From contig NC_081384.1 of NCBI RefSeq assembly GCF_030684315.1, positions 26,822,818 through 26,886,817 of the forward strand: DNA of 64,000 nucleotides, given 5' to 3'. The notes under the pieces were generated by a model. That model worked only from the letters and a program-made list of their open reading frames with translations, was not told the origin of the DNA and made no database searches. The stretch is from Stegostoma tigrinum (Eukaryota). Made by a program: the position numbers and the translations under genes. Shown here piece by piece: positions 6,235-51,530 of this stretch; within the stretch, counting starts at the first letter, position 1, and each line of letters starts with the position of its first letter.

Positions 6235-6440
6235 GAGATAGCAGGAACTGCAGATGCTGGAGAATCTGAGATAACAAGGTGTAGAGCTGGATGAACACAG
6301 TTGGCCAAGCAGCAAAAGAGGAGCAGGAAGGCTGGCGTTTCGGGCCTAAGCCCTTCTTCAGAAATCCGAAACATCAGCTTTCCTGCTCCTCTGATGCTGC
6401 TTGGCCTGCTGTGTTTATCCAGCTCTACACCTTGTTATAT
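6235..6440. mobile_element. Fold-back PLE 3'-end insertion with 16-bp TSD
   Basis: Inverted arms GATAACAAGGTGTAGAGCTGGATGAACACAG...GTTTCGG / CCGAAAC...CTGTGTTTATCCAGCTCTACACCTTGTTAT. TSD CAGAAAAGTTGAYCCA at 6219-6234 and 6441-6456. Confidence 0.9.
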
Positions 6441-7009
6441 CAGAAAAGTTGACCCACCTTTTCTTTTCTGAAACAGTGAGCATAATAGATCATGTATAAC
6501 TTGGATAAAGCATTTCATTTCCTTCAAACATTTATTGGGCTTTGAAGGTCCAAACAAAGGCAAAAAAGTTCAAACAATAGGCTCTAAATAGAGGCAATTC
6601 TTGCCTCTGAACCTCAGCAGAATGTTAATTGCTAATTTATTTTAGAGATACACATGCTAAGGTTTATGGATACGTCAAGCTGTCTTTTGAATGCTATTAT
6701 TGCACGCTGTAGCAAGTATGCATTACCATTTTCATTGTTGAACTAAAAGAACTAACTGATCCGGGGGAAGAAATTAATTCATATGGCAGAGCTGCATAGC
6801 ATTAGTATGCTTCCCTACAATGCAAAGTGGGCTGCTGCCTGCACACTGCTTTCTGTTGTTTAACGGCATTGATAAAGAACTTGAAGTGACCCATGAAGCG
6901 AACAGCCTGTGACACTGCTTGATCCAGGCAACCAGCTACCTCCCAATATGACAAGAGATGCTATGAAATAGAATTCCCCTCCCTCTAAGTTGTAGATGAA
7001 TAAATATCT

Positions 7010-7265
7010 TGAGATGATAAGAACTGCAGATGCTGGAGTCAGAGATAACACAATGTGGAGCTGGAGGAACACAACAGGCCAGGCAGCATCAGAGGGGCGG
7101 GAAAGTTGAGATTTCGGGTCGGGACCCTTCTTTAGAAAAATCAGCATTCTTTTAAGATTAAATTTTTTTCTGAAGAAGGGTCCCAACCCGAAGCATCAAC
7201 TTACCAGCTCCTCTGATGCTGCCTGGCCTGCTGTGTTCCCCCAGCTTCACACTGTGTTATCTCTA
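7010..7265. mobile_element. Fold-back PLE 3'-end insertion with 11-bp TSD
   Basis: Inverted arms around a short AT-rich spacer. Plus-strand core CTGAAGAAGGGTCCCAACCCGAAGCATC. TSD AATAAATATCT at 6999-7009 and 7266-7276. Confidence 0.88.
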
Positions 7266-10200
7266 AATAAATATCTATATTGTCATCTGCCATTTTGCCA
7301 GTGCAACATTAGCTCCAGTTCAATTCTAGCCTCAGTAACACACATGATAGATACAATCCTGATAATTTTCAGGATTGCTGTTGTATACAGTTTTAATTTC
7401 AAACTTCATTCATGACTTCAGATAGTTTCCTACCTCCCATATTCCAAGCTGCAAATTTAGAGCTTGCATTCACATCTCACTGCAATGTTCTCATTTAATC
7501 CATGTAAACTCCAGACCTTAATGCAGTTTCTCTCTGTCTTTGGGAATGGATTCATTCTTTGACTGGTATACTTCTGCACTTGGGATTTGTTTTCTTTTAT
7601 ATTTTCTCATTTGATTCTGAAAAAAAATCTGCTTTTGATTCTCTATACAAAAGCTACCAATCTAACAAGTCTTTACCAATTACCTGAAAACTGTTGGCTT
7701 AATAATCAAAAGGCTTGCACTCAAACTGTCTACTTCCTAGCATGATTAACAAAGTGTTCATTTTTAAAACATTCAGTAGGCTTAAGAAGTGTTCTGGGCC
7801 CATTATTACAGCTGTATAGTGAAGGATGTGAATTGTAGATTGTCACATCGCACTCGCAGATATTGCAAATCTCAAAACTATGATGACAGGATGTTTTAAT
7901 TTTAAAAATCTCACTGCGATTGAAAATGTGCAGTGTTCTTGTTTTCCATGAAATTAGGATGCCAGGCCTGAGCCAGGATGGGACCGATATGCAACTGAAG
8001 AAAGTAAACTGTAGGAAATTCAGAAAGATCTGAGTAACTGAAACCACATTGTACAGGCAATGGAATCAAATGTGAGCTGAAATCAGCTTGGAGTTTGAAG
8101 GCTTGGTATATAAAACTAGTGCTGACCATGGTTGAATCTGTACATGAATCTAATGACTTGTTTATACCTGAAGAATAATTTTATACACTCTGTTCATTAT
8201 GTTCAGGAAGTTTGGTGATGGCCACTAACCTCAGTTTTCAGTCAGTTTATGAGCTGCTGTCTGGTGAAATTTCCATGAGAAGCTACATATTCATAAAGCC
8301 TACTCATAAATATAATAATAGTCTTGAACTTACATATTTTTAGTGTAATTTTTAAACTGTCATTAAGATGCATTTCAATTTTTTGCATCTAGGGTATATC
8401 ATAAAACGCGTAGATGCTAAAGAATGAATAATAGGTTTGGAATTTAATCATGGAGTTCATCTAAAACCACTCAAACCTAGAATAAATTACAGCTGTAGTA
8501 TTCATTCCAAATCATCTCATAATTCTATATCTCATTTGCACGCTACACTGCTGCTCATCACGGGTCTCCATCACAGCACACAAAAGAATAAGACAACTCA
8601 TGGTGGTGAAAGTGATCTGTCTGTGCTGAGATTATGGGGGAAAAAGAGACGCAGCAGCAAGATCACACTGAATGTTGCAGTCAGCTGAAATGAGAGACTC
8701 TGGATATAACCAGAACCCCTCTCGAGTCTGATCTTTGTGACAGAATAGCAGCAGAAAGAATGCTATGTGATTGGATATTCTGACACCAAATATTGATGGT
8801 TCACAGGATCCTGAAATACCTCAGCCTTAAGTACACAGATAGCAGTGAGCTCTCAGTCTTTTATCACCACAAACACTGCCGGTAGTTGAGATAATGCTAG
8901 AACTGCACAACAGCTCCTGCTGATAATAATGTTCTTGATCCTGCAAAGTATAAACTGTGTAGTAATTGTCCTGGCATACTTGAAATGGTGGCAGTAGCAG
9001 AAATGTTTGACATTGAGCTTATAATATGATCACATTGCCTGTGGCAAACTGATTTGCTACTTTATGTCTTTTCTAAATACTATTTTCTGTACCTTTGGCC
9101 TTCTCCCTCATTTTAGCTATTGCCACCATATTTCCTTCACTGCTGGACAAATGGAATAATCTTAGTTCCTATAATTTCCACCACTTATCATTGACACGAC
9201 TTTGTGGTTAACCGATAGGAGGAAGACTCTTCTCTGGCACCTTCTTCCCCGAAAGACTTCTTCCTCTTTATGTAATATTGAGCAAGTTAGTCCATGGGTT
9301 AGCCTCTCCTAAAGCCAAAGCACATTCAGTAATGGTTGGTGCATTAAAAATACAGACTGTGATTCCCTGGGTTTGAAGTTCAAGCCTTCACATATGAGCA
9401 CTATCAGGTTGTGACTCTCATTTTTCAAGGCCAAGATGAGTTCGCCATTTGGATTTAGCTTGTCCCTTTGAATGCTTAAATCCTTTGATGTGGGCACTTT
9501 GATATTTTTCTATTTACTTCAAACCTTGAAACAGAATTATCATTTTCTACAGTAGCTCTATTGTGCAATGCAATTTTTTTTCTTATTTTTCATTACATGG
9601 CGTGATGGTACCTTTCATGTGAGGAAATGAAAACTGAAGTGATTGAAATGTAGCAATACTTTGGTAAAATACTGGTGCTTCTGTTTCTGAGATATGTTTA
9701 GAGAACATCAAAAGACTAGGATCAAAGGAAAGGTGATGGGAGAAGGGTGGAATGGGGATTGAGGGAGGGTGACCAAAGCGGTTGCTACATTACTAACAAT
9801 TTCTACTGATCTCTCCCACCCACAATTCCAGAGATAGGCGTCGAGGAACTCACTAAAACAATTTCAAACGGCAAGGAAATTATTATAACTGCAGAGATAT
9901 GAAGAGGCAACCTCCCGAATTCTTTTTCGCTTCCTGTGCACTTTGCCTCCCCTCTTGGCACTAGATCAAATTGGCAAAACATCAAAGGACCACATCAGGA
10001 CAACAATGTTTGCTCATCCTTATTTTAAAAAATTAGTTAGGTTTGGTGGTGGGCATCTGTAGCAATGCTAAAACAGGAGTAGGTTTCTTATTACTTTCTT
10101 GAATACTTCAGGCTTGAAAACCAAAATGAATTTCAAAACAATAACAACTCTCATCTTTTAATGGTCACTCCCGTCAAGCATTGTAAATCGTAACTTTTCA

Positions 10201-10479
10201 TTAGTTACTTCTAACTGTGTGCAGCCTGTGTGCCAGCTCCCACGAGCACTCTGGCTTCAAATTTAATGAAAGCAAAGAACAAGGCTCAATTTAAGTCTGT
10301 AGAAAGTTCACAGTGTTTATCCATGAAACTGCTGTGGAAGAAGAGCAAAAAATGTTCGACAGTTTACCTGTCACAACGAGTTGTATAAAACTATTAAAGA
10401 TGTCTAAGAATTGTCAGTGAACAATAGTCAGTTGGCAGATTATTGCAATACTATTCCTTATTAACTTTATATAGTCTAC

Positions 10480-11210
10480 TATCCAACCACTAGAAATGAG
10501 CCAAAACTCTGCTACCTTCTCTACCCTACTCACACCATATACCCTCCCACACCAGATATAATATCCTCCATTCTCTTATGTCAGGTGGAAGACGCAAAAA
10601 TTTAAACACATTTCAATCAAATTCAGAACAGCTTCTTCCCAACTGTAATTAGACTTCTGAATGGGTGTTTCATATTTTAAATTTAATATTGATCTCAGTC
10701 TTATCTGCAGCCATAACATTGTATTACTCAGGGAGGGTGTTCCTGACGTTTGGTGTGCCCAGAACCAAGGGTCACAGTCCGAGCATTTGGGGTAGACTTT
10801 TTAGGATGGAAATGAGGAGACATTTCTTCACCCAAAGAGTAGCAAGCTTGTGGAATTCATTACCGCAGGAAGTAGTTGATGCCAAAACATTTAATGTATT
10901 CAAGAGGCAGCTAGATATGGCACGTGGGAGGTGAATGAGATCAAAGTTTACGGGGAGAAAGCAGAATTAGTCTATTGAGTTGAACGATCAGCCATGACCC
11001 TGATGAATGATGTAGCAGGCTTGAAGGGCCAAAGGGCCTCCTCCTGCTCCTATCTTCTATGTTTCTATGCTTCTGTTCTATTACCCTAATCTAACGTGTA
11101 TGGCAATGATCTGCCTGCCCTGCATTCAAAACAAACCTTTTCATTGTACCTAGGTACATGTGACAATAATAACCCAAATCAAATCAAATCAAGTTAAATC
11201 AAATCAAAGA
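10480..11210 (+). mobile_element. Rex1/Babar-like LINE 3' end, interrupted by a CR1
   Basis: SGGRRK...KFRNSFFPTVIRLLNG-like C-terminus, and the tail TTTTCATTGTACCTAGGTACATGTGACAATAATA followed by (AAATC)n. Confidence 0.75.
10730..11070 (+). mobile_element. CR1 LINE 3' fragment nested in the Rex1 tail
   Basis: RTKGHS...RRHFFTQRVASLWNSLPQEVVDA; tail CTCCTGCTCCTATCTTCTATGTTTCTATG. Confidence 0.88.
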
Positions 11211-11254
11211 TAATGTAATTACATTGTAGTCACTGATTTATGCAGTACTCTTGA

Positions 11255-11790
11255 AGCAACACCTTAAATTTGAATTTCTCTTCCTTACTTTGAAATTTTC
11301 TATGTTCTTGTCCCTCCCTATCTCTTCTCCAGCCTCACGACACTCTGAAATATTTGTGCTCCTCCAATTTTGGTTCCTGATCATCCCTGACTTTGATTGC
11401 TTCATAATCGTCAACCATACATTTAGCAGCCTAGGCCTAGAGACCTGGAATTCCCACCTTAAATGTCCCCTAAACATTCAGTCCAAGCTGCATTGATGCA
11501 ACGAAGTTGCCCACATTGGCGTGCCGATGTATGACTTGCGGAATTTAAAGGGACCAAGCAGCAGCAAGAAAAATGACAAAGGAATGTTGTTCTCTGTCCC
11601 TGCACCTCTCTTCCTTTTTTAAAGACCCTAATTAACAGTTACCTTTTTGACCAAAGCTTCCTTGTTAATCTCTAACTCTGATCCCATTTCATATGGGTCT
11701 GCACCAAATTTGGCCTTATAACACTCATCAGAAGCATTTTGGAATGTTTAACATTGTTTGCAAGCTTTACATAAAGAGAAAGTGTTGTAG
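11255..11790 (+). mobile_element. L2-clade LINE 3' end, decayed, with an internal insert
   Basis: FSSLGLETWNSH (AFSxxxPxLWNSLP-like) and CTTTTTAAAGACCCTAATTAACAGTTACCTTTTTGACCAAAGC, then an L2-type tail. Confidence 0.6.
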
Positions 11791-13539
11791 ACCAGGCCTC
11801 TCTCCAAAATCTACTGCACTACCTGTGCTGCTCGACAATGAAGTAAGTTCAGAAGTGGAAGGGTATTTTTCCAGAGCAAATAGACCTTCACATATTCCTA
11901 GCAACCACAATATTGATGCCAATAGCAGAGACAGTTGCTTCATCATTTCATCACTTAATAGATTGACTAGACAGCGTGAATATTTCTCTGTGCCTTACTT
12001 TGAGATACTGGGAAAAATAGATTTTATTTATTTGAAAATTTTGTGTCACACAATAGCCCATGAACATGAGTGAGTTTCAATTGAGCATTACATGGTATGC
12101 AAAAAAATTCAATAATTCTATGGATTTATCCTTGTTTAGATTTAGAATTGTGTAACCATCTTATTTTATGCAGCAATTGTTTACCTGTATAGTCAAATGT
12201 TTGACTACTTGAAGCCCCAGCATTGTTTTCAAAGCAGTTAATATTTACCAAGGGCCTAAACTGATATTAAACTCCTATCGGCCCCTTTGCCCCCTTGGGG
12301 AGGTGGAGGGGAAGAGTGATAAGGACTGTGATGGAGGTGAGGAGCTCAAGGAGAAAGGTGCTATGCAGAACAGTAGCAAAGAACAGTAATCGGCAGGAAG
12401 GAGTCATTGACTGTGACCACCACTGCAGTCTCCACAGGGGCTGAGTAAAGGAGCAAACTAGCATCATCATCATTAAGTAATGTCGGGTTGGAGAAGCTCT
12501 AAGGACAGTTGTAGGCAGAGGAAATGGGCTGTCTGGGTACGTGAGGTAAAAGATGGTAATGGAGGCTTGGAGAGGGGGTTGTCACCTGGTGACCAGGTAG
12601 ATCCTGGTGCTCACTCCGTCCATCACAAGCTGCAATCTCAGCCATCACTTTCCCTTCTCAAGATGCAAAGTGCTAATGGAAAATGGCAGGACCATTGCCC
12701 AGTGTGAGTGGTACAGGTGTTAGTTTGATGTGAGAAAGTGCAGCTTCCACGTTTTCTGGATTCAACTCATCATAGCAACCAAAAAAAATACAAGGGAGCA
12801 GCCTTTTGCGAAGTGCAGCTACATTTCATCTACAATCATTTCAGGAACGTCTTGCTACCCATGCAAAAGGGGCGCTTAGTGGTCAGATGATGGTAAAAGG
12901 TGACTTTCAATAGGTTGTTGCTGCTTGTGAATTGAACTTGGCTATTTCAACGAGGCTGATGTTAGCAGTGATGACACATCAAAAGGCCAAGGCTCACTTA
13001 CATCCAACTTCCAAGGATCCTGTGCGAGCCTCATATCAATTCATCATCTGTCATGTAAGTACAACAATTTGTTACAACTGTGCTGAATGCAGTGAGGAAT
13101 TGAGCATTTGATATGGGTTTGGGGTCAGAGGACCGCAGACACTTCCATCTCGATGGCATTGGATGGCCATTTAATCAACATGACTCCTAAATAATGTTGC
13201 TGCACATTCTGAGCCTGAATGTAGTTGAATGATGGAGATATGTCTTTTGTTGTCAGGATATAGTATGTCTCACTGTGTGGGGGTGCTATCACAGCCCTCA
13301 TCTGCATTATGTTCCATCAATGACTATTCTGAGGACTAAGAATCAGTTCCCCTCCTTCTATTCCTAATTTAGGGCCTTTCCACTAAGACTCCGGGTCCTG
13401 TGTCTGGTGGAATCTTGGTCTGTCTGTGCTGTCTCTAGCCAATGGCAAGCCCAGGAGCAGAGGCAGCAACTGGCCAGCACAGAGGGTGAGAAACACCCGG
13501 CTCAGGGAGAGGTCACAGCAGCAGAGTCCCTCAGGAGGG

Positions 13540-14250
13540 ATGTGCAGGAGGCCCAGAGTTTTCTGGCCACTACTCCATTTCCTAGCGTTGAACAAGACGC
13601 AGCACCAGCACAGTCCCCAGCTGCAGCACTGAATGTCTGCATGCCTGGCTCTTTCCAGACAGCAATGGGTGACCTGTGTGAGATATCTCTGTTGAGCACC
13701 CACAACTACATCAGGATAGTGCCCAATGCCATTTGTGCAAGATCACAATGGTTTATTTCATTCCATCATTGCAAGTCCAGCTGCCATCACTTCTACATTC
13801 GGGAGAACTCTCGTGTAGCTGGTGTGTTTGAGTGTCCAGGGGCCTTACATTGCTGGTTTCTAGGGAACAAGGGCTACCCACGGTGACCATGGCTGACACC
13901 AACTTCATACACCCCCCTGACTGATGTGGAGCTCAGGTTTAATGCAGCCAATACCACAATCAAAGTTTGGTGTTGTAGAGCACAGGGCAGCTGAAGAGGT
14001 AATTCTATTGCTTGGACTGGTCTGACCTGACCAGACAGAGCATGCTGCATAATCCTGGCATGCTGTGCTGTACAAATTTGTAGCTGCAGTGAAGTGATGC
14101 TGAGTGCTAAGGAACTGGGGGAGTGGGAGCACACCCCTGAGGAGGAGGATGAGGACATGGAGACAAAGGAGCTGTCATTGTCCATGATAAAGCTCCGCTG
14201 GAATGGACACTACAAGCCAGACAGAACCTGACTTCCAATAGAAAAGAGCA
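13540..14250 (+). mobile_element. PIF/Harbinger transposase relic (HARBI1-like), internally deleted
   Basis: GSFQTAMGDLCEIS, SCHHFYIRENS (PGSxHDxxIL), WFLGNKGYP (LLGDxGYP), ELRFNAA, and ACCAV (ACCxLHN). The IDCTH/NRKG segment is missing. Confidence 0.85.
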
Positions 14251-16769: not shown

Positions 16770-16957
16770 AGTGATAATGGGAACTGCAGATCCTGGAGAA
16801 TTCAAGATAATAAAGTGTGAAGCTGGATGAACACAGCAGGCCAAGCAGCATCTCAGGAGCACAAAAGCTGACATTTCAGGCCGAGACCCTTCGTCAGATG
16901 ATGAAGGGTCTAGGCCAGAAATGTCAGCTTTTGTGCTCCTGAGATGCTGCTTGGCCT
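16770..16957. mobile_element. Fold-back PLE 3'-end insertion with 14-bp TSD
   Basis: Arms meet at ...GACCCTTCGTCAGA|TGATGAAGGGTCTAGGCCAGAAATGTCAGC. TSD ATTRTTGGTTTATG at 16756-16769 and 16958-16971. Confidence 0.9.
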
Positions 16958-17666
16958 ATTGTTGGTTTATGTAAGGTTTTATTTCTGGTGAAGTGATCAG
17001 CAATTTCAGACAAGATGGGTTTTGGTTGTGTTTGTGATGCCTTTTTGTGTTGCATATTTCAAAATGTTCATCTAAACATAATTTGAACTCACAGTCCTCC
17101 TGCAAGCTTTTTGGCAAAGTTTGTACCTCTAACAGTTGCAACATCTATACAAATTCACCAATTCATCAGGGTGCAACAAAGTGTGGAGGTCCATGAGGCA
17201 TACTGTACTGTTATGAAGTCGGGAGCCCCTATTTTAGGAATGAAAGAATTCCATTCAGACCAGTTAGAATCCGAGTTTAAGGTCATGAAGGTGAAATTGA
17301 ACCAGGCAGACAAGTAAATTGGATTGTAGTTCTTTGCTCAGCCATTATGAACTTCAATGATCTTTCTTTCTACTGACTGTGATGACTGGCAGAGTGTGCA
17401 AAAGCTGTGCCTGGTATGGTACAGAACTACGTGGACCCATAAAGTGACAAAGTTAATCCACCCAATGCTATTCGCTGATCGCAGTTTCAGTGGTGGTCAA
17501 GATGCTATGTTGTGATGATACATCACAGCCCTGAAATACTATGAGCATTTTTTAGCTTTTAATTTCAAAATGTGTTTTTAAAAGAGGAGTGCTACAGGCA
17601 ATAAAAAGACTGCAGGTGTAAATTCAATGCTGTCTGGCAAAATCCCGTGAGACCCATATAACATCA

Positions 17667-17838
17667 TGAACACAGCAGGCGAAGCAGCATCAGAGGAGCA
17701 GGAAAGCTGACATTTCAGGCCTAGACCCCTGAAACATCAGGCTTTCTGCTCCCCTGATGCTGCTTGGCCTGCTGTGCTCATCCAGCTCTACACCTTGTTA
17801 TCTCAGATTCTCCACCATCTGCAGTTCATACTATTTCT
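17667..17838. mobile_element. Fold-back PLE 3'-end insertion with perfect 14-bp TSD
   Basis: Arms meet at TTTCAGGCCTAGACCC|CTGAAACATCAG. TSD CCCATATAACATCA at 17653-17666 and 17839-17852. Confidence 0.9.
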
Positions 17839-20525: not shown

Positions 20526-20659
20526 TTCACCTGTTTCCCAGTCTTTCCACAGCTGCAAAATGGAACTAGAAATCAAAGGGTTCATGTCCAATATATTCCA
20601 AATTGAGGGACAAGGGCATAGGGCCCCCTGATTTGCCAAGTAAACAGCTCCTACATTGG

Positions 20660-20858
20660 GAAAGCTGGATGCTCATTTAGAAACAAAAACAGAAATTGCA
20701 GGAAAAGCTCAGCAGGTCTGGCGGAATCTGTGGAGAGAAATCAGAGTTAACATTTCAGGTCCTGTGGCCCTTCCTCAGAGCCCTTCACAGATGCTGCCAG
20801 GTCTCTTGAGCTTTTCCAGCAATTTCTGTTTTTGTTTCTAAATGAGCATCCAGCTTTC
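20660..20858. mobile_element. Fold-back PLE insertion whose 19-bp flank is duplicated in inverted orientation
   Basis: GAAAGCTGGATGCTCATTT-AGAAACAAAAACAGAAATTG ... CAATTTCTGTTTTTGTTTCT-AAATGAGCATCCAGCTTTC. Confidence 0.85.
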
Positions 20859-20859
20859 A

Positions 20860-21307
20860 GTCAGAATTCTAGTGGAGTCCACAGACAGGCATTTGGCCAC
20901 TAAATCTTTTGGTCGGCACAACATTGTGGGCTGAAGGGCCTGTTCTGTGCTGTACTGTTCTATGTTCTAAATCAACCCTCACACAGTCTTCTAAAAGAGC
21001 TCAACAAAAACTGAAAGCACTGTGGCTGCTGGAAATCAGAAACAAAACAGAAGTTGCTGGAAAAGCTCAGCAGGTCTGGCAGAATCTGTGAAGAAAAATC
21101 AGAATTAACATTTCAGGTCCTGTGATCCTTCCTCAGAACTCTTCATAGATACTGCCAGGCCTTTTGAGCTTTTCTAGCAATTTCTGTTTTGTTTCTGATT
21201 TCCAGTGCCTGCAGTTCTTTCAGTTGTTATTCACCTCATTTAGAAGACTGTGTGAGGGTTGATTTAGTGGACAAATGCCTGTCTGTGGACTCCACTGGAA
21301 TTCTGAC
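20860..21307. repeat. About 450-bp palindrome: PLE fold-back core plus about 73 bp of inverted non-PLE flank
   Basis: GTCAGAATTCTAGTGGAGTCCACAGACAGGCATTTGGCCACTAAATC..AACCCTCACACAGTCTTCTAAA is mirrored by TTTAGAAGACTGTGTGAGGGTTGATTTAGTGGACAAATGCCTGTCTGTGGACTCCACTGGAATTCTGAC. Confidence 0.92.
20907..20966 (+). mobile_element. 60-bp, extremely 5'-truncated CR1 tail with 7-bp TSD
   Basis: GGTCGGCACAACATTGTGGGCTGAAGGGCCTGTTCTGTGCTGTACTGTTCTATGTT. TSD CTAAATC at 20900-20906 and 20967-20973. Confidence 0.9.
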
Positions 21308-23801: not shown

Positions 23802-24493
23802 GATAAAGTGTGGAGCTGGATGAACACAGCAGGCCAAGCAGCATCTCAGGAGCACAAAAGCTGACGTTTCGGGCCTAGACCCTTCATCAGAGAGGGGGAT
23901 GGGGAGAGGGTTCTGAAATAAATAGGGAGAGAGGGGGAGGCGGATCGAAGATGGAGAGAAAAGAAGATAGGTAGAGAGGAGAGTATAGGTGAGGAGGTAG
24001 GGAGGGGATAGGTCAGTCCAGGGAAGACGGACAGGTCAAGGAGGCGGGATGAGGTGGTAGGTAGGAAATGGAGGTGTGGCTTGAGGTGGGAGGAAAAGGA
24101 GGGGTGAGAGGCAGAACAGATTAGGGAAGCGGAGATAGGCTGGGCTGGTTTTGGGATGCAGTGGGGGGAGGGGACGAACTGGGCTGATTTTGGGAAGCGG
24201 TGGGGGAAGGGGAGATTTTGAAGCTGGTGAAGTCCACATTGATACCATTGGGCTGTAGGGTTCCCAAGCGGAATATGAGTTGCTGTTCCTGCAACCTTCG
24301 GGTGGCATCATTGTGGCACTGCAGGAGGCCCATGATGGACATGTCATCTGAGGAATGGGAGGGGGAGTTAAAATAGTTCGCGACTGGGAGGTGCAGTTGT
24401 TTATTGCGAACTGAGCGGAGGTGTTTTGCAAAGTGGTCCCCAAGCCTCCGCTTTGTTTCCCCAATGTAGAGGAAGCCACACCGGGTACAATGG
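23802..24493 (-). mobile_element. Young 5'-truncated Penelope-like element: GIY-YIG endonuclease C-terminus, 3' UTR and hammerhead
   Basis: Minus ORF 24121-24504 HCTRCGFLYIGETKRRLGDHFAKHLRSV...EQQLIFRLGTLQPNGINVDF. Perfect 11-bp TSD ACCTCTGACAA at 23791-23801 and 24494-24504. Confidence 0.95.
23863..23890 (-). ncRNA. Minimal type-I hammerhead ribozyme core, intact
   Basis: Minus strand CUGAUGA-A-GGG-UCUAGG-CCC-GAAACGUC: conserved core, short stem II, palindromic ACGU in place of stem III, GUC cleavage triplet. This matches the minimal hammerheads described in PLEs. Confidence 0.8.
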
Positions 24494-24582
24494 ACCTCTG
24501 ACAATCCTGTTTACATCTGTCAGCCAGGGCTCCCTCATTGGACCAGATTAACAGCCCCAATCAGGGAACTCATATTCTATGA

Positions 24583-24742
24583 CAACTGAAAGAACTGTGG
24601 GTGCTGTAAATCAGAGACAAATATAGAAATTGCTGGAAAGGCCTAGCAGGTCGGGCAGCATCTTTGGAGAGAAACAGAAGTTTTAACATTTTGGATTGAG
24701 TGACCCTTCCCATTGAGCTTTTCCAGCAATTTCTATTCGTGT
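24583..24742. mobile_element. Asymmetric fold-back PLE 3'-end insertion with perfect 14-bp TSD
   Basis: GACAAATATAGAAATTGCTGGAAAGGC / GCTTTTCCAGCAATTTCTATTCGTGTC. TSD CTCATATTCTATGA at 24569-24582 and 24743-24756. Confidence 0.88.
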
Positions 24743-25312
24743 CTCATATTCTATGAGGCCCACCTGGCTGACCTCAGAACAATCACTACAAACACTGTGT
24801 GTGGATTATGGTTAAATGCAATCATCATCTCAGAAAAATGTAACTTAGAACTGAGATAACGTGGTAGGCAGCAAAATATTATTCCACAAATATACTGTCT
24901 GGGCCAACAATTATGCTTTAAGAGAAATTAACATGAGATTGTTTCTTAATATATTAACAGCAGTTCCAATTTATAAGCGTGATCCTTTATAATCCAAAAT
25001 AACTTATTTTTTCTGTATTTCCCATTACAGAGGCCCATGTCAGATGAGTTAGCAATCTTCTGACTTGCTTATTGGACCTTGCAGACTGATAAGAAGCCAC
25101 AGACTCAAACCAGTGGCACGTTGCAAGCTCAGCAAACACCATGGGAACGTTAGTTGACGATAAATTGTTTATCCTTGAGACTGCATTCTCTCCCATCACC
25201 ATAGTCTGCACATCCACTGAGTAATGGAGGCACTTGGATAGTGTGCCTTAGAGAGCTAGCTAACATCAAGGAACTGTATCCATGGTGCAGTCACTACCAT
25301 CAAGAAAGGACG

Positions 25313-29224: not shown

Positions 29225-30010
29225 AACTGTTCATGGTACACATATTACTTGATGTTGGAGGAAACACAACACAGACTGGGTGGTCACTTTACAAAATACT
29301 TATCTTCAAAAATCACCCAAGACTGCCACTTTAACACATCATTATGTTCCCTGCCCAACATCTCTGCCTTAGGCTTGCTGCAGTGCTCTAGCGAAGCTCA
29401 GACCCAGCTGAAAAAAACAGCATTTCATTTTCTGCTTGGGGGCCCTACAGTTTTGAGGACTCAATATTGAGTTGACTAATTTTAGGACCTGAGTGCTTCT
29501 CCTATTTCCTAACCCCAACCCAATCACAATCGTGCTTGTCATCACATGGGCCACTACCACAAAAGCAATGCATTGTCAGGCATTAATGGTCCCCATTAAC
29601 AGCTACTGGTTCTCCCAGACTGACCTTGTCTGCCCAATAGCTGGTCTCTTTAAAAATCAAAAGAACTACAGATGCTGTAAATCAAGAACAAAAACAATTC
29701 CTGGAAAAGCTCAGCAGGTTTGGTAGCATCTATGAAGGAGAAAACAGAGTTAACATTTTGGGTCCAGTGATCCTTCCTCCGAACCCTTCTCTTTCTCTGG
29801 GCTCCAGCTCCATGTATCATTTACTCCTCCTCCCAACCCCAGCCTATATCCAGCATATGTATTCCCCTTTTCCTAGCTGCAACCAGTTCTGAGGAAGGGT
29901 CACTGGGCCTGATATGTTAACTCTACACAGATGCTGCCAGACCACTTGTGTTTCTCCAGCATTTTCTGTTTATGTTTCAGACTTCCAACATCTACAGTTC
30001 ATTGACTTTT
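29225..30010 (+). mobile_element. Old PLE 3' region (decayed GIY-YIG and tail) containing an antisense PLE end at about 29652-29785
   Basis: ETQHRLGGHFTKYL...ISALGLLQCSSEAQ. Tail core TTCTGAGGAAGGGTCACTGGGCCTGATATGTTAAC near 29890. Confidence 0.75.
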
Positions 30011-30054: not shown

Positions 30055-30821
30055 GCGAGTTTTGAGAAGATTTGTAGCTCAGGTTGAGGTTCTGGATGTG
30101 AGTTGCTCGCTGAGCTGGAAGGTTAGTTTTCAGATGTTTCGTCACCATTCTAGATAACATCATCAGTGAGCCTCTGATGAAACGCTGGTGTTATGTCCCG
30201 CTTTCTATTTATCTGGTTAGGTTTCCTTGGGTTGGTGATGTCATTTCCTGTTCTTTTTCTCAGGGGATGGTAGATTGGCTCCAAATCAATGTGTTTGTTG
30301 ATGGAGTTCCATTTGGAATGCCAAACTTCTGGGAATTCTTGTGTGTGTCTCTGTTTGGCTTGTCCTAGGATGGATGTGCTGTCCCAATCAAAGTGGTGTC
30401 CTTCCTCATCTGTATGTAAGGATATGAGTGATAGGACATGATACGACATGACCCACTATCACTCGTATCCTTACATACAGATGAGAAAGGACACCACTTT
30501 GATTGGGACAACACATCCATCCTGGAACAAGCCAAACAGAGACACGCACGAGAATTCCGAGAAGCATGGCATTCCAACCGGAACTCCATCAACAAACACA
30601 TTGGCCCCCAATTAACCTACCATCCCCTGAGAAAAAGAACAGGAAATGACACCATCAACGCAGGAAATGACATCACCAACCCAAGGAAACCTAAACAAAT
30701 AAATAGAATGCAGGACATAACACCAGCGCTTCGTCGGAGGCTCACTGATGATGTTACCTAGAATGGTGACGAAATGTCTGAAAACTAACCTTCCAGCTCA
30801 GCGAGCAAACTCACATCCAGA
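30055..30821. mobile_element. Large fold-back PLE insertion (second family), about 770-bp palindrome with 13-bp TSD
   Basis: Both arms encode HHFDWDxTSILxQAKQRHxxEFxExWHSxxNSINKHI in opposite orientation; centre about 30445. TSD ATGTACMAACCTA at 30042-30054 and 30822-30834. Confidence 0.93.
30745..30778 (+). ncRNA. Hammerhead ribozyme core with one CpG mutation; mirror copy on the minus strand at about 30133-30166
   Basis: CUGAUGA-U-GUUACC-UAGAAU-GGUGAC-GAAAUGUC. The mirror arm reads GAAACAUC, so the ancestor was GAAACGUC. Confidence 0.75.
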
Positions 30822-43412: not shown

Positions 43413-43824
43413 GACATAGGGAGTACACTCAAAGGGAAGAGTCTGAGAGGAAGGTTGAGAGAGAATCAATACTTTGTATTTGACTGTAGTAACATATATT
43501 GTGAGAATAGAGAGTAGGAGTTCTGTTGCCCTATTTACATCCAAATTAATCCATTAGCTGATTAGATCACCTAAGGATTACCAACTGGTTAACACTAAAA
43601 GATAAATGTAGTCAAAGGCTAAGGGCAGACCAGGTAACATATCCTGTGTGGTCACATCCATCACCTTCTATTTCCATTATTAACTTCCCTGCTTTTCAAT
43701 TCAATTCATTTTTAAATGTGCCTGCATACTTTTTTTTGGCTTTAACAACCTGTTTAGATATGACACAACACACCTCTGCAGGTATCACATCCTGAGGTGA
43801 GAACTGAACCTAGACTTTCTTGAT

Positions 43825-44263
43825 GGACTGGGGCAGACAAGGTTAAAAATCACGAGACACCAGGTTATGGTCCAACAGGTTTATTTGAAAGCACAAGCTT
43901 TTTGAGCCTCATTCTTTCTTCAGATGTTAGTGAGAAAGGTAGCATCAGACACAGAATTTAGTCACCTCTGGTATACTGATAAAGCCTTTAGTTATCATGG
44001 GACAGTGACTTGGTAGAAATTCTGGTTATTGCATATTAATCAATTGAAACTTGCATCTCCTTTCTAGCTGATTAAAGATTTAACATCCATCTTAGGTTTT
44101 TTCAATACATTTGCTCAGTTCTATGACTCTTTGATCTTTTACTTATAAGTTCTGTGTTTGATGCCATCTCTCTCACTAACACCTGAAGAAAGAATGAGAC
44201 TGTGATGGCCTATGTTTTCAAATAAACTTGTCGGATTATAACCTCGTGTTGTGTGATTTTTCA
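43825..44263. mobile_element. Fold-back insertion of a third PLE family, inside a SINE head, with 16-bp TSD
   Basis: AAAAATCACGAGACACCAGGTTATGGTCCAACAGGTTTATTTGAAA is mirrored by TTTCAAATAAACTTGTCGGATTATAACCTCGTGTTGTGTGATTTTT. TSD CCYAGACTTTYTTGAT at 43809-43824 and 44264-44279. Confidence 0.8.
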
Positions 44264-44669
44264 CCCAGACTTTTTTGATCAGAGGTAGGGACATGTCAGT
44301 GCATCTCAATGCCCTAAGCCCCAGTAACATGCTTGCTTTCGCTACAGCCTCATTAGCCATTGTAGCTACCTATTCTGTTTATAATATTTACATCCATAGG
44401 TTACCCTGCTTCTTTGGCCATTTAGGCACTTATTTTCCAAGGAGTATATAATCACCTTATCAAAACAAATTACTTCATACTTATCTGTATCAACATCCAT
44501 TTGTCAATTATTCACACTCTCCCTGTTTATTAGTTGCTACCTACATTGTGTTGTCTGCTTCCTCTGTATTATTTGTAATTCCCTGATAATTGTCTACCAA
44601 CTAATACTACTATATTCCCATTTGTATCATGGACTTTGATTTCATATAAAGATGAATGAAGATATTTTC

Positions 44670-45110
44670 TAGTGCAATGGTTAGTTCCTTACCTCTTAAC
44701 TAGGATCTTCAGCTTCACATTCCATTCTAGAATGTGGCATTCTTAATAAGGTTGAGTACCAATTCATCTATCCTCCCAGTTGAGGAACATAGAGAGAGAG
44801 AAGTTTCTGATCGATTGTACAATGGAATGAAATTGGAACCTTTACTATCATTATCTACTGCTCCATAAGCAATGTACAACATAATATGAGAAAGTGCATG
44901 TTGTTACAGCAACTCATTACCCAGCTTGGGGCCTGGTTGTCTCAGTTTGCTGAACAGTTGATTTTGATCAAATTGCTGCCAACAGCATGGAGGTGGATTC
45001 CTGTCCTGTGGGGTAAATTCAGAACCTGCCTCATTGCCCTATTTGTGATGGAGATCATGGTGATGTGGGTTGGTCCTGCCTCTGGACAGAACATTCAGGG
45101 ACAAGAATAG
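44670..45110 (+). mobile_element. Two adjacent decayed tRNA-derived SINEs
   Basis: Heads TAGTGCAATGGTTAG...CCTTACCTCT (about 44670) and GGGGCCTGGTTGTCTCAGTTTG (about 44927). Confidence 0.45.
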
Positions 45111-45704
45111 CTCATTAAACTTATATGAGATCCAGGTGGGCAAAATCCTCTGCCTCTCTTCCACTTTCTAGATCTGCCATGCCTTCGAGAAATCAAATAA
45201 AGTAGATAAGTGTGGTCTCCCATTTCTTAAACAATCTCAGCGTTCTTAACACACACCTCATGCCATATCCTGTTATATGATCATTAATATTTCCAACCAC
45301 ACAATGATAATTTTGGAAAGGTAGGAGATCATTTATGATCAGAAGAAACCAATAAAATGGCAAATATCACAGAGTTAAGGAAGGGAAATCAGTTAAACTA
45401 CAGTTTAGTGTAAAAAAGGCATTAAAACAATACTGGAGAAACTCAGCAGGCCTGCCAGTGTGAGTGGAGAAAAACAGAATTAATGCTTTCAGTCCAAAGA
45501 CTCTTCTTCAGATTAAAAAGGAATGTTTGCAAAAGATTTCGGAAGTAATTATGTTGGTGATAGAAAGTTCCAGATCTTAAAGTTGGATTTGGGATCTGAA
45601 GGTTATTTTTACAGGAATTAAGCGTGGTAAGTAAGAATGGGGAACAGGAGTGAGAGAGACAGAAGGGCAAGTGCAGTGGGGAAAAAGAGAGAGACACACA
45701 CAGA

Positions 45705-46025
45705 GATTATTGAATCCCTATAGTGCAAATAAAGGCTATTTGGCCCATCAAGTTTTCACTGACACTCTGAAGAACATTCCACCCCATCCTATCCCTTGTA
45801 CCTCCCACATTTTCCAAGGCTAATCCAGCTAGCCTACGCATCTCTTAACACTACAGGGTGAATTAGTACAGCCAATCTGGAAACTGGAGCACCCAGAGGA
45901 AGCCCATGAAGTTATGGGGAGAATATGCAAACTCCACACAGACAGCTGTCTGACGCTGTAGTTGAACCCAGGTCCCTGGTACTATAAGGCAGTACTGCTA
46001 ACCACTGAGCTACTCTGCCACCCTA
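45705..46025 (-). mobile_element. HE1-type V-SINE
   Basis: GGGGAGAATATGCAAACTCCACACAGACAG...TTGAACCCAGGTCCCTGG...AACCACTGAGCTACTCTGCCACCC. Confidence 0.85.
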
Positions 46026-47944
46026 GTGACAGCTTCCCTCCCACCATCCAAGCTACACCAAGTATCTCTTGCCTTAACCCTGGCCCTGAGATGATCCCCT
46101 GGCCTGGAGGAAGCAACAACAGTGACGGAATCAGTTGCCTTCGTGGAAAAATAGCAGAGGAGGGTATGCAGCAGATTGATCCTGAGGCAGCAGAGCCAGG
46201 AAACAGTACCAGCAGCACTGTATACTAAGGCAGCGGAGGAGGTGGTTACAGATAGAGCAGACAGTGAGGAGGCCAAGGTACAGGAGCTGGAAGAGATTGA
46301 GAAAATGAATTGAACAAATAAGAATGTTCATTTTTGAGGGTTCACAATGGACCACCACACACACAAAATAAAGAGTCCAGTACTTAGTGAGTTGAAGTTG
46401 AACCATAACATTGGACTTGTTGGGCCGAAGGGCCTGTTTCCACACTGTAGGGATTCTATGATTCTATGAACAGCTACTGCCCAGGATCCAGAACTTTCTA
46501 GGGTCAAGTAGTTGGACGCATGTAGCTAATTAAGGACTGATGGGGATCTGGGTTCAGATTCTTTCTATGGTTTTCATCATTTTTGTAGTCTTCATAAAAT
46601 TTTATAGTTCTCATCATTTTTACTATTTATTACTTTGTATCTTTTTTTGCTTTGTAGGCTTTATGGCATGGAGATTGGAAAGATATTTTGCACTAAATGA
46701 AAAGATCAATAAATTCAGATCTTTTTGTGATAAATTTCCTTGCTTTTTTAAAAAATTCATACATTGCTGAATGCAGTTGATGTTAATTTGATACCTTTGT
46801 GAACTTTCTTTTGATGCAGTTGAGATATGTTATTTAATGCTTTTGAGAAGCTCCTTTTGATGGCTTTGGGGGTTGTATTTTGAAGACTTCAGATGCTTTC
46901 CAAAACTTTTTTTACATTTTGAGTTCCTCATTTGGTCGAAATGAGGAGATTTGATGACGTTTGAAAATGGTGTGTTTTTTTTTCTTATTATGCTCAGAAG
47001 AAATGCAACTACATTGTTTACAATTGCAAATTTAAAAATGTTCATTTAAAGTTAAAAAAAATTGTTATAGCTAAGAAATTAATAAGGGGAAATGGGAAGT
47101 AAGAACATGTAACTGTGAGAGTGAAATTAAGTTTAAATAAGTTGCCATTAACATTATGTTAAGTATACACTTTAACCCTATAATGTTAGCATCAAAGGAG
47201 TTATATAATTAAAGACATATACATGCCTGTTGTATAATAATTATGCCACTTTCTGTGTCCTAGCAGATAAATTGAAATCAGTGAAATCTAATCACAGGGC
47301 ATCCACATCTTTAAGCATTCATAAACTTTCAATACATTGCTGAACCAGCTAACTTTCTGCAATTTGTAAAACTCAAGCAAATAAAGATTTGGTAAAAGAA
47401 TCTGACATAAGAAAAAGAAGTTTGCTTTCAAATAATTTAAATTCAAAGCCAAAGCCAGTTATTGCAGAGTGTGTCATTACCTAACAGAATGTCGGTGCAT
47501 GTCGAATAAATTTCTACTCAGGACTTTGAAGTGTGCAGCAATGACCCAATGTCTCATGTAATCCCTGTAGCATATCTTGCAATAGATTGTCTGAATCACA
47601 GCACCTGAGGCAATGACGCCACAGAACTATGGTGCATACAGCCAAAAATATTCAAAAAACCTTCTAATTTATCTGACACATTGGAAATTGAAGTGTCAGC
47701 ACTGGCAGCTGCTTAGACTGTCAGGAGATCAGAGACAATAGGATTTTCTTGTCATCAACATCATTATCTATTAGTTTAATGGACGCCCTCTGGAAGCTGA
47801 ATAAATGGATATCATAAGAGCTGCACAAACATTACTGATTTTGAAAATGAAACATGGTCAGCAAACAATCAAGCTATGTCAGTGGGAGGACATTGTCTTC
47901 TAAGCTTCAGTGTGTTGAAACTTTAGATACAATGGTGCCGTTTT

Positions 47945-49695
47945 GGACTGGGGTGGACAAAGTCACAAGTCACATGATACCAGGTTATGGTCCAACAGGT
48001 TTATTTGAAACCACAAACATTCAGAGGACAGCCCCTTCATCGAGAGGGAAGAGCACACAGATGCACATTTTATAGGCAGAGAGATCAAGGGCTTAGAAAT
48101 CAGGAGATGATACAACTAGTGTGAGTAGAGTATCGAATAAGAAGTCTCAGCTGGTGACCAAAAGTCGTAGACAGTGTGAGTAAAGTGTCAACAGCTGAGT
48201 AACAAGTGAAGGGATGACCTATAATCCAATTAAATGAGGCAGAGAGATAGTTACAAAAAAAATTAAAGATAACGTGTGTGCTAGAGATAAACTAAATGAC
48301 TGGAATAATATATGTGTAAGAGTCGCATGCCAAGTGGCTAACCAAAGTAATAAGTAATCCAAAACTGTGCAAAGTAACGAGAGTAGAGAGGTGTTAACAA
48401 GTTACCAAGATGATGGTGTCAAAACAGGACAGAACAGTGTGGTAGGGTCACATGTCACGTGACATGAACCCAAGATCACAGTTGAGGCCACCCTCGTGGG
48501 TACAAAACTTGGCTATCAGTTTCTGCTCAGTGATTCTGTGTTGTAATGTATCTTGAAGTTCACCTTGGAGGATGCTTACCTGCAGATTCAAGACTAAACG
48601 TCCTTGACCATAGAAGTGTTTCCTGACTGGAGAGGGAATATTCCTGTCTGGCGATTGTCGTGCAGTGCCCATTCATCCTTTGTCATAGCATCTGCACGGT
48701 CTCACTGACGTACTATGCCTCGGAGCATCCTTGCCTGCAGCCGATGAATTGTCAACATTGGCTGAGTCACATGAGCATTTGCCATATCCATGGTGGGTGG
48801 TGTTCCCACATGAGATGGTAGTGTCCAAGGCGATGATCTGACATGCTTTGCAGAGTTTGCCATGGCACGGTTTTGTGGTGTTGTAGCCAATGTTGTTGTG
48901 GATGCTGGGTAGTTTGCTGCAAACAATGATCTGTTTGAGGTTTGGCAATAGTTTGAAGGTGAGAAGTGGAAGAAAATGCTGTCAATGTGTCTGGTATAGC
49001 ATTGGTCGGAGGTCCTGTGCAGCAAAGATGTCTTGATAGAATGTGTGCATGAAAATGTTGGCATATTGGGGTATAGATTGCTCCCCATGGTTACAACTCA
49101 TGTCTGGACGAAGAACTGGTTGTCAACGATGAAGAAGTTGTGGCCGCGGATGAGTTGTAGGTTGACAGGTGTTGGTATTGAGTACTGTCGTAGCAGTGAT
49201 CGCATCGTGGGTGATGCTGGTATAGAGTGGTGAAACATCCATCATGATGAGGAATGTTCCTGATTTGACAGGTCTGTGAGTGTTGCGTTTCTGTAAGAAA
49301 TTTGTGGTGCCGCAACAGACGCTGGGAGTTCCCCGTAAAATGGGTTTCAAGCTGCTCTCAACATAGCTGGAGAGGTTCTCGCATAGGCTGATACAATGGA
49401 GTGACCAGGTATGTTAGCTTTGTGTATCTTTGGAAGGCAACAGAAGCCTCATACTCAAGAAGTACGCAGGATGAGAGTGCTTGGAAGATCAAAGGTCTTG
49501 ATCAGTCTGTTGAGTTGATGGGTGTGTTCTTTGGTCGGATTGGCAGGCAGTTGTCTGTAGTGTTCCTGGTTACTCTTTGCACTAATCTATTCTATTCTCC
49601 ATGATGATGGCTCCTGCTTTGTCCGCTGGGCTTGATGACAATGTTACAATCGGTCTTGAGGGCCTGCATAGCATTGCGTCGTGCTTGGGTGACAT
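47945..49695 (-). mobile_element. Long decayed Penelope-like element (RT, GIY-YIG, 3' end); same family as 43825-44263
   Basis: GTFLIMMDVSPLYTSI (RT motif A), CKACQII...SCDSANV and EQKLIAKFCTHEGGLNCDLGFMS. Many frameshifts. Confidence 0.9.
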
Positions 49696-51530
49696 TCTGC
49701 TGCTGTTCCTTTTATACCGTGACCTACAACTTTCCTCATTAGTCTGTTGTGAGGCAGCGTATTAAACATGTTCTGGAAATCCACATCAGCAATAATACCA
49801 TCATCGAGCATTTCTGTTATCTCTTCATAAAACTCCACCAGGTCAATTCAACACAATTTTCCCATTAGAAATCCATCCTCAAACGTCTTAGCCAACCTGC
49901 CCATTTTCCCTGTCTTGATTATTAATTCTGTCTTGAATCATTGTTCCTAGATACCTCTCCCCGATTGAAGTTGAACTGACTGCTTTATAATTATTGGGAT
50001 TATCCTTAGAGCCTCCTTGAAAATAGATGTGTTGTTTACAATGCTTCAGTCTTCTAACACGTTCCCTGTGTACAGTCAGGGCAGAAAGATAATGGCCAAT
50101 GCCCTCACAATTTCCACCCTTAATTCCTTCAAAACCCATGAATGCATCTCATCCATTTCAAGAGTCTTGTCAACTTTAAGCACCAACTGTCTATCCAAAC
50201 TTCTTCAAATAAAAACTGACAGAACTGTAGATTCTGTCAATCAGGAACAAAAACAGAAGTTGCTGGAAGAGCTTAGCAAGTCAGGCAGCATTGTGAAGAA
50301 AGAAAACAGAGGTAACGTTTCGGGTCTGAGTTCAGAGGTCTGAGGAAGGTCTGGACCGGAAACATTAACTCCAATTTTTTTTCTTCACAGATGCTGCCAG
50401 ACCTGCTGAGCTTTTCCACCAACTTCTGTTTTTGTTCTACGTTATTCATTTTGAATGCTTTAGTGACAGAGTTTCCTTTTCTACCAGCACGCCCTGGGCT
50501 CCATTCTCCTCATTTTCAAAGACAGATCCAAAATATTCTTTTAATATCTCTGCAACACATCCTGCTTCCATTTGTAAATCCCCCTTTGATTAAACCTCTT
50601 ACATGCCTCCTTTAAACACCCTTTTTACAATTTATGTGCTGATAGAAAACGTTTAGATTCTCTTTTATGTTAGTTGCTACATAATTCCTCTTGGATTCTC
50701 CAAATTGCTTTTTCACCTGCCCTTGAAACCTTCAGCATTTCTCTTTGCTCCCAATGGTATTTTTTTTCCTTGCACCTGTTATGAGCCCACTTTTACTTTC
50801 TAATGTTAATTGTTACCTCCTTTGTCATCCAGGGAGCTCTGGATTTGTTTGCCCTACCTTTCCCATTTGACGGAATCTACCTTGACTGTACATGAGCCAT
50901 CTGCTCTTTGAAGATGGCCCATTGCTCAGCTGCTGTTTTTTCCACCAAGCTTTTGTTCCAGTCAATCCTGCCAGTTCTGCTCTTACCCCACTGAAGACAG
51001 CCCTCTACCAAATGATTTTTCTCATTTTTGAATGTGAATGTTATTCCCCAATATTGCGCCTCAGACTTCGACAGTGTGACAGGAATGTGAGACGTGACAG
51101 GATGCTGGATCCCTGGAAGGATCGGTCTTTCCTTCACTGTACCCTGAGCCTTATGGTAAAATGTCCTTCAGGGAAGAAAATCTGCTATCTTCACCTAGTC
51201 TGGTTTATATGTGACTCCAGACCCACAGCAATGTGGTTGATTCTCACTTGCCCTCTTAAATGGCCTGGAAGGCCATTCCATTTAAAGACAGGCAATAATT
51301 GCTGGCCGGCCAGCAATGCCCACATTGCACAAGTGAATTACAAAAAAATCACTGCCTGCTAAATGTTTCCCTTCTGTCACTTTATCCAGTTGGCACACCT
51401 CATTGCCAAGTGGCAGGTCCAAAAATACATGCTGTCTTGTCAGGCTAGACACATACCGCTTTAGAAACTCTCCTGAACATAATCTGGCAAAGGTACACCT
51501 CCCTGCCCTTACTCTACCTCTGTCCTAGTC
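49696..51530 (-). mobile_element. Fragmented old CR1 ORF2 (endonuclease-RT) with several nested inserts
   Basis: DFQNMFNTLPHNRLM, GSKDNPNNYKAVSST and IDWNKSLVEKTAAEQWAIFKEQ. An endonuclease-like segment resumes at about 51350. Confidence 0.8.
50210..50438. mobile_element. Fold-back PLE 3'-end insertion inside a CR1
   Basis: GAACAAAAACAGAAGTTGCTGGAAGAGCT / AGCTTTTCCACCAACTTCTGTTTTTGTTC; centre GTTTCGGGTC...CTGAGGAAGGTCTGGACCGGAAAC. TSD not convincing. Confidence 0.85.

Follow-up and report, generated by a model that had tools for sequence, protein, structure and literature searches.

Short copies of Penelope-like elements (PLEs) in Stegostoma tigrinum stop sharply a few nucleotides upstream of their hammerhead ribozyme core, about 30 nt after a TATA-like box, and transcription probably starts at this stop. 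The short fragments are probably run-offs at the RNA 5' end, and each head-to-head palindrome probably consists of two such copies, one primed from each strand of a single cut. Breakpoints were counted in about 1.5 Mb of genome, comprising the window (the whole 64,000-nt stretch analysed) and 15 blocks of 100 kb; a triplicated stretch of C14 was left out. Within the elements, positions are numbered from core nucleotide C3 (= 0), which places the predicted cleavage of family A after +27.

A sequence-only reading of the window had proposed that fold-back points cluster at the hammerhead core. All seven short palindromes that it named exist, and in six of them one arm or both end 1-4 nt upstream of the core (Table 1). 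Plotted against the family numbering over the 1.5 Mb, breakpoints were peaked rather than uniform, at -7 to -1 in both families A and C: 66 of 206 at-risk family A arms ended in this stop zone, that is, 1-7 nt upstream of the core, as did 58 of 78 in family C. The end rate in family A was 4.6% per nt in the stop zone versus 0.36 upstream and 0.69 downstream; in both families ends were 10-25 times as frequent at the stop as upstream of it, falling off as a cliff on the upstream side and as a shoulder on the downstream side. Among copies of at least 85% identity the counts were 46/155 (A) and 22/27 (C), the latter being the safer figure for family C, where several solo calls at -5 to -7 are old copies with divergent upstream sequence. 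The clustering of ends was thus confirmed, but "fold-back" proved too narrow a term for it, since solo copies ended there as often as palindromic ones: 23/76 versus 43/126 in family A (p=0.64) and 33/72 versus 25/57 in family C (p=0.86), the solo class including some arms, such as that at 16898, that had lost a shortened partner to filtering.

Table 1. Features in the window (arm ends in element numbering; plain positions are those of the window)
Feature	Positions	Strand	Remarks
Family A palindrome	6234..6444		minus arm (6234-6365) tailed, end at -4; plus arm (6365-6444) tail-less, start at +17
Family A palindrome	7011..7263		both arms end at -3 (7138, 7167); unrelated 28-nt spacer; one arm tailed
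Family A palindrome	16771..16962		tailed minus arm ends at -1 (16898); plus arm 16899-16962, 3'-shortened, begins at about +1 (manual reading)
Family A palindrome	17666..17838		arms meet within hammerhead stem II; both fall short of the stop zone
Family C palindrome	20679..20857		arms -1/+43 (20779); outer flanks partly duplicated, inverted
Family C palindrome	21011..21205		arms -4/+44 (21140); inverted flank duplication
Long 5'-truncated family A copy	23805..24495	-	reads through the stop zone; GIY-YIG C-terminus, pyrimidine-rich 3' UTR, TATA-like box, hammerhead
Minimal type I hammerhead	23863..23890	-	core, 4-bp stem II, palindromic 4-nt stem III; predicted cut between 23863 and 23862
Inferred transcription start (-4)	23894..23894	-	centre of the family A stop zone
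TATA-like box TATTTATT	23917..23924	-	first base at -34 from the core
GIY-YIG endonuclease fragment	24190..24495	-	Pfam PF01541 E=0.18, below curated cut-off
Family C palindrome	24602..24750		minus arm ends at +5
Family C palindrome	29675..29984		arms -3 and -98
Family D palindrome, counter-example	30098..30814		turns >200 nt upstream of its core
Family F1 inverted arms, counter-example	43841..44265		both run past the core
Solo family C copy	45433..45512	-	ends at -1; no inverted partner
Family C palindrome	50216..50437		arms +17 (tailed) and -4 (tail-less), 50336

Simulated uniform truncations gave flat calls, and only 1 of 595 true ends at or upstream of -25 was miscalled into the stop zone (family A only), which rules out an alignment artefact at the pyrimidine tract as the cause of the family A stop. 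Of the other explanations named beforehand, the pLTR boundary fits the breakpoints best; the pyrimidine tract as a barrier to reverse transcriptase (RT) was rejected, the end rate within it being low (0.36% per nt). The position of the stop differed between families, with median ends at -3 (A), -4 (C), -6 (F2) and -7 (F1, from 5 ends), the F families being shifted against A and C together (p=5e-5). Family D, which a DNA search missed and which was located by pattern search (6,050 exact matches), has its stop 17 nt from the core: 1/100 arms ended in -7 to -1 versus 8/100 in -20 to -14. On fresh loci, with the prediction noted beforehand, 0/45 arms fell in -7 to -1, while 3/45 were called at -16/-17 and a fourth was placed there by hand; the D stop is weak, comprising 7 loci with two arms corrected by hand.

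Family A belongs with the EN+ PLEs. Its single ORF joins an RT to a C-terminal GIY-YIG domain; in the C11 copy (3.45 kb, frameshifted), RVT_1 (E=1e-5) is followed by GIY-YIG (PF01541, E=0.0013), both short of the Pfam curated cut-offs. A DKG motif lies upstream of the RT in the C11 and C28 translations, and each keeps two of the three cysteines at the place expected for the CX2-5CxxC linker between RT and EN, a Neptune trait. The inverted 5'-truncated partner, the 30-40 nt tail and the target duplication of EN+ PLEs all occur among the 75 family A pairs. Sequence of the pLTR precedes the ORF start, as the C3 copy runs from ribozyme through tail into a match to the C11 ORF N-terminus (59% amino-acid identity). 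The sample yielded no intact young full-length copy. Families C, F1, F2 and D are putative EN+ PLEs, assigned by pLTR anatomy (hammerhead, tail, inverted partners). The RT with DKG and the C-terminal GIY-YIG are as in Neptune-clade elements (PMC8557442), the cysteine linker partly so, and the inverted 5'-truncated partner, the 30-40 nt tail at one end and the pLTR hammerhead are shared too; the sections of that account drawn on describe no abrupt truncation site linked to a TATA-like box. Short copies are dense here, with about 210 family A arms per Mb.

The ribozyme has the conserved core, stem II, palindromic stem III and short stem I of a minimal type I hammerhead. Rfam gave no hammerhead match at E<=1, only hairpin matches below cut-off, and the predicted fold of the monomer at 23863..23890 is an inactive hairpin. 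Copies were correctly said to span the predicted cleavage site (275/317 A arms, 121/145 C arms), and a mostly uncleaved template, as had been suggested, is borne out by the same family A count. There was a weak bump at +28, the predicted cleavage site, made of 7 arms at 6 loci, where the simulation itself snaps about twofold; in family C, 2/145 ends lay within 1 nt of the site. The ribozyme appears mostly uncleaved and passive. An uncleaved template is already published: in sections of PMC11167929, unprocessed RNA is the dominant template of PAc, a Poseidon element of Anolis. Minimal PLE hammerheads and non-LTR retrozymes, as described in parts of PMC4209133 and bioRxiv 10.64898/2026.07.22.740005, share with the ribozymes here the extra base before stem II, the dimer-requiring palindromic stem III and low expected activity; the same parts note opposite-strand pairs and propose a circular template. 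Tandem units each with a hammerhead are a trait of non-LTR retrozymes, whereas copies in the window are head-to-head or solo; the palindromes need no circle signature, and circular templates, though still conceivable, are not required.

A TATA-like hexamer sits at a fixed place in each family: -34 in A (42/50 long copies), -33/-32 in C (3/10), -37 in F2 (5/9), -39 in F1 (11/25) and -47 in D (26/35). The pattern was relaxed after D was seen, and the three matches in C are among ten old copies. The box lies 29-31 nt before the stop in all five families, the predicted start being itself deduced from the stop. Measured against the general initiator consensus, an initiator-like YYA occurs at the predicted start in C, F1 and F2; young family A copies are without the initiator A at -4. 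One old copy, beginning at about 0, extends across the tail as far as the start of the ORF. Of three copies with both ribozyme and ORF start, two extend upstream past the stop, thus some templates began further upstream. Pooled, the ends showed no enrichment of a cap-derived G (41/146 versus 55/182, p=0.71); a post hoc count of G at the predicted start gave 18/38 (p=0.007 against genome background, p=0.14 against other ends) and failed in family A (3/16). For assembled RNA contigs, whose library type was guessed, no start pile-ups were reported. In another organism, loose ends of 16 contigs cluster at 23891, but the hint is weak, since older subfamilies mismatch there too. Elsewhere, pLTRs of A. 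vaga carry a putative TATA/initiator (PMC3846280). According to parts of PMC2377424, transcription of D. virilis Penelope also begins within the upstream pLTR, with the start 46 nt ahead of a 75-nt intron; that promoter is TATA-less and internal, whereas here the TATA-like box is upstream of the inferred start.

The palindromes themselves are asymmetric. Exactly one arm was tailed in 72/75 family A palindromes, and the 3' ends of arms formed two modes, near +92 and +127. Target duplications of 10-17 bp (counted at a length of at least 10 bp) flanked 42/75, and inverted flank similarity was seen in 1/75. The two arms of a palindrome mostly share one variant: at polymorphic columns they differ in 8% of cases, random pairs in 37%. 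A shared variant is also predicted by one template or by a fold-back. In LINE-1 twin priming, inversions arise from two primings off both target strands, and each arm derives from a different part of the RNA; here one segment underlies both arms, which are offset by the 35-nt tail. In vitro, PAc protein has both strands cut and extended, and two internal RT starts bound the tail (PMC11167929, in part). The PAc ORF starts inside the ribozyme, whereas here the first ATG of the ORF start lies about 175 nt downstream, and the sections of that paper drawn on hold no map of genomic 5' ends.

Several other origins of the stop were weighed. The sequence-only reading offered, as one option, a stall of RT at the folded or dimerised ribozyme that would trigger the fold-back making the second arm. 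One junction in the window (17729) does exploit stem II symmetry, turning within the stem at a GGG/CCC microhomology; microhomology overlap occurs at 29/75 family A junctions, arms mostly share a variant, a few loci have inverted flank duplication, and self-priming was proposed in PMC3846280. Yet a stall should load the entry (3') side of the ribozyme, where ends were at background (16 A arms in +28 to +34); the pile-up is on the far side, after full read-through, solos share it, and the D stop is 17 nt away. Moreover, the tail-less arm reaches further 5' in 33/55 asymmetric family A palindromes, so that a single fold-back is insufficient without later deletion, and in 19/22 of family C, where tail calls are less reliable; both arms end at the stop in 10/75 A pairs, and 3/41 pairs differ at four or more diagnostic sites. 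We therefore consider the stall very unlikely, and the results argue against the mechanistic tie between ribozyme and inversion that it implied. A greater, still low, probability goes to the idea that RT coming from the downstream repeat terminates just past the structured ribozyme domain, for instance by release of a cDNA hairpin, which would make the stop a structure edge and not an RNA end. It needs no promoter assay, and predicted RNA structure has its 5' edge 0-4 nt from the stop in all families, D among them with a predicted hairpin that begins at -17; it leaves unexplained the constant 29-31 nt spacing from the TATA-like box in otherwise different upstream sequences, F2 copies end 2-3 nt beyond their 4-bp helix I, and 140 of 206 family A arms pass the site.

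Long palindromes are unstable, and long head-to-head insertions could have lost their centres later, short survivors piling up at this length; microhomology at many junctions would fit. However, the same end point is seen in solos whose upstream flank is unique, and deletion would not yield a 7-nt peak whose upstream cliff shifts between families, which makes such loss highly improbable. There is also only a slight chance that RNA processing sets the stop, with a 3' splice site or a branch point located where helix I begins (its 5' end): part of PMC4209133 maps the end of the Penelope intron of D. virilis there, family A has a long pyrimidine tract upstream and family C a CAG at -5 to -3, but AG is absent at the stop in A, F1 and F2 and usually kept in C copies, and 30 solos at the stop have no common upstream sequence fit for a first exon.

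If the stop is a transcription start, as we favour, the 3' UTR of an upstream copy would be the source of the TATA/initiator promoter. The RNA would start a few bases before the ribozyme and run through RT start sites, ORF and 3' UTR to a second ribozyme. The element's protein would cut both DNA strands and prime internally, at +127 on one strand and at +92 on the second. A cDNA primed in the upstream repeat would have only 100-130 nt of template before the RNA end, while one primed in the downstream repeat would read through into the ORF and become a long copy; the two cDNA ends would be joined head to head via short microhomology or filler bases. Run-off copies would be without the TATA box, and this would account for activity being confined to partial tandems. 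A partial tandem is likewise required by D. virilis Penelope and by the HeT-A tandem promoter, as treated in parts of PMC2377424, where the 3' UTR of an upstream copy serves the downstream one.

More speculatively, and less likely than not, the template may be a capped mRNA whose TATA promoter puts the hammerhead at its very first bases, with a dimeric protein priming twice, 35 nt apart, on the two strands of one break; the hundreds of thousands of fragments would then be a fossil map of the start and, in the minor +28 peak, of rare decapping by the ribozyme. Our search of the literature by titles and abstract openings found no report of this stop. Parts of PMC8557442 and PMC2377424 leave open the origin of PLE inverted repeats, the role of the hammerhead and the need for partial tandems. 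The base-precise genomic stop, together with the TATA-like box, predicts an RNA start for five families, and the tail asymmetry of the palindromes links the in vitro two-start result to real insertions. If the capped-mRNA scheme is true, it would cover palindromes, one-sided tail and partial-tandem requirement at once, and the ribozyme would be a cap-removing switch, not a circle-maker.

The palindromes of the window are 3' ends of Penelope-like elements (PLEs) paired head-to-head, and a relative on contig C11 (3.45 kb) encodes a reverse transcriptase (RT; RVT_1, E=1e-5), a DKG motif, a putative cysteine linker and a GIY-YIG domain (E=0.0013), both Pfam scores lying below the curated cut-offs. 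Five families carrying a pLTR hammerhead were labelled A, C, F1, F2 and D; the ORF evidence covers family A alone. The sample comprised the window and 15 blocks of 100 kb from the same 3.2-Gb genome, the C14 block past 48.3 kb being left out because it is triplicated. The 5' ends of arms were called with BLAST, using natural long copies as the reference and excluding self hits, and are given relative to core nucleotide C3 (0); rates omit arms whose 5' end lies at +60 or later. For families F1, F2 and D, copies were retrieved by searching the same genome with the core and 3' part, which makes their downstream rates unsuitable for comparison. When 1,500 uniform truncations were simulated for family A, calls were flat and 1/595 far ends landed in the stop zone; the calls snapped about twofold to -1, +20 and +28.

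The sequence-only reading had placed the fold-back points at the hammerhead core, and in 6 of the 7 palindromes it named, the 5' end of an arm indeed lies 1-4 nt upstream of the core; the palindrome at 17729 turns within stem II. In family A, 66/206 at-risk arms end in -7..-1 (4.6% per nt), compared to 25/140 over the 50 nt immediately upstream (0.36% per nt) and 109/315 in the 50 nt downstream (0.69% per nt). The corresponding counts for family C are 58/78, 4/20 and 62/140; some old solos (copies lacking an inverted partner) are probably miscalled there owing to differing upstream sequence, and at an identity of at least 85% the stop zone retains 22/27. Family F2 shows 24/40 arms ending in -9..-3, and family F1 5/35. 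The clustering of copy ends upstream of the core is real and general.

Where exactly copies stop differs between families: within -12..-1, median ends are -3 in A (n=48), -4 in C (n=22), -6 in F2 (n=21) and -7 in F1 (n=5), the F families differing from A and C (p=5e-5). A TATA-like hexamer occupies a fixed place in long copies, at -34 in A (42/50), -33/-32 in C (3/10), -37 in F2 (5/9), -39 in F1 (11/25) and, with the pattern loosened so as to admit it, -47 in D (26/35). Family D is the sharpest test of what the stop follows. Its first set had 5/55 arms ending in -20..-14 and 1/55 in -7..-1; 40 fresh stretches, taken after the prediction had been noted, gave 3/45 at -16/-17 and 0/45 in -7..-1, and one further arm, called at -27, was read by hand as -17. 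With two hand corrections, the family D total is 10/100 arms at 7 loci. In C, F1 and F2, an initiator-like pyrimidine-pyrimidine-A start lies 29-31 nt past the box; young family A copies lack this start. An old copy on contig C3 has its 5' end near 0 and continues across the tail (the segment between +92 and +127) into the ORF start, hence the same sequence heads the transcription unit. We therefore consider, with moderate confidence, that the stop is most likely the RNA 5' end behind a TATA promoter rather than a product of ribozyme action. Penelope itself starts in the upstream pLTR from a TATA-less promoter (PMC2377424), and putative TATA/initiator elements are described in rotifer pLTRs (PMC3846280).

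Several results weigh against an RNA start. Copying to the RNA 5' end can leave an untemplated G derived from the cap, and a pooled test showed no enrichment of such a G (41/146 vs 55/182). Post hoc, G was found at the predicted start in 18/38 cases (C 9/15, F2 5/5, F1 1/2, A 3/16; p=0.007 vs the genome, p=0.14 vs other ends). Moreover, every stop lies 0-4 nt from the edge of a predicted structure, the family D hairpin beginning at -17, and 2/3 copies with both ribozyme and ORF start reach beyond the stop, which means that read-through or circular templates exist. The proposal that the folded ribozyme stalls RT and triggers the strand switch was not supported: RT would enter from the 3' side, yet just 16 family A ends fall in +28..+34, near background, and the stop is as frequent among solos, some of which had their partner removed by filtering, as among palindromic arms (A 23/76 vs 43/126; C 33/72 vs 25/57). 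The stop could also be an intron end, as placed at helix I in D. virilis (PMC4209133), but an AG is missing from the stop in A, F1 and F2, and the sequences upstream of 30 solos have nothing in common.

Copies do cross the predicted cut (after +27), as had been claimed: 275/317 family A arms span it. Unprocessed RNA was already shown to be the dominant substrate (PMC11167929), and this hammerhead class has low activity and depends on dimers (PMC4209133). The young family A monomer is predicted to adopt an inactive hairpin in 84% of the ensemble. Seven arms at 6 loci, all palindromic, begin exactly past the predicted cut, at +28, where simulated ends snap about twofold; they may derive from cleaved RNA, or reflect snapping at a self-complementary 4-mer.

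The 3' ends form two groups, near +92 and +127, corresponding to the known tail. Exactly one arm is tailed in 72/75 family A palindromes (60/174 solos have the tail). Target duplications of 10-17 bp flank 42/75, and inverted flank similarity, itself element sequence, occurs in 1/75; each family A palindrome is thus one insertion. Had one fold-back made both arms, the tailed arm would have to extend further 5', as it does in just 22/55 asymmetric pairs. Junctions comprise 29 overlaps, 5 blunt joins, 34 fillers of 1-31 nt and 7 longer ones. In family C, 25/38 pairs have one tail, though tail calls are less reliable and some pairs spurious. The family A one-tail counts, pair of 3' ends and junctions fit a mechanism in which both strands would be primed, at the two starts known in vitro. 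Alternatively, fold-back followed by deletion may make the second arm, in line with arms mostly of one variant: two arms differ at 35/436 polymorphic sites (37% in random pairs), and 3/41 pairs show at least 4 diagnostic differences, so a single source usually supplied both arms. Palindromes with inverted flank duplications (window 20640-21307 and locus L184) may form a true fold-back or repair class. Long self-inverted stretches kept in the assembly indicate that long palindromes are tolerated in this genome.

Coordinates of PLE features and of other repeats in the window and sampled blocks
Feature	Position	Strand	Remarks
GIY-YIG fragment	window 24190-24495	minus	encoded protein
Internally deleted mini-elements	C4:+66375; C6:+51723, +81717; C10:14707, 34716, 79252 (100-kb block offsets); L241		
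Two family C palindromes	window 20640-21307		outer flanks duplicated inverted (26-47 nt), unlike most; likewise L184
3' half of a LINE	window 313-1571		RT ORFs with frameshifts; presumably CR1-like
Inverted arms	window 51053-51825		86 nt, 94% identity, 601 nt spacing; no kinship to PLE palindromes; possibly a DNA transposon derivative
Segment in three copies	G000:C14:30027583-30097054 (contig C14)		~24 kb, >99% identity
Near-perfect self-inverted stretches	C2 58127-59616; C28 62832-64173; C24 87778-89846 (block offsets)		1.3-2 kb

Inverted partners, one-sided tails, pLTR hammerheads and circular-template ideas are already published (PMC8557442; PMC4209133; bioRxiv 10.64898/2026.07.22.740005); our literature search, outside which lay subscription papers and supplements, found no report of a promoter-linked truncation point or a counted tail asymmetry. 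At about +130 to +175, right before the first ATG, ORF-start copies have what may be a branch point and a 3' splice site, which suggests that an intron of the 5' UTR may have been retained, as other PLEs do; a donor was not found in these copies. In the mini-elements, a piece of the ORF start (about 120 nt) is joined with the 3' UTR tract; they resemble retrozyme precursors, and some are longer than one unit, as expected of a tandem or circular template.
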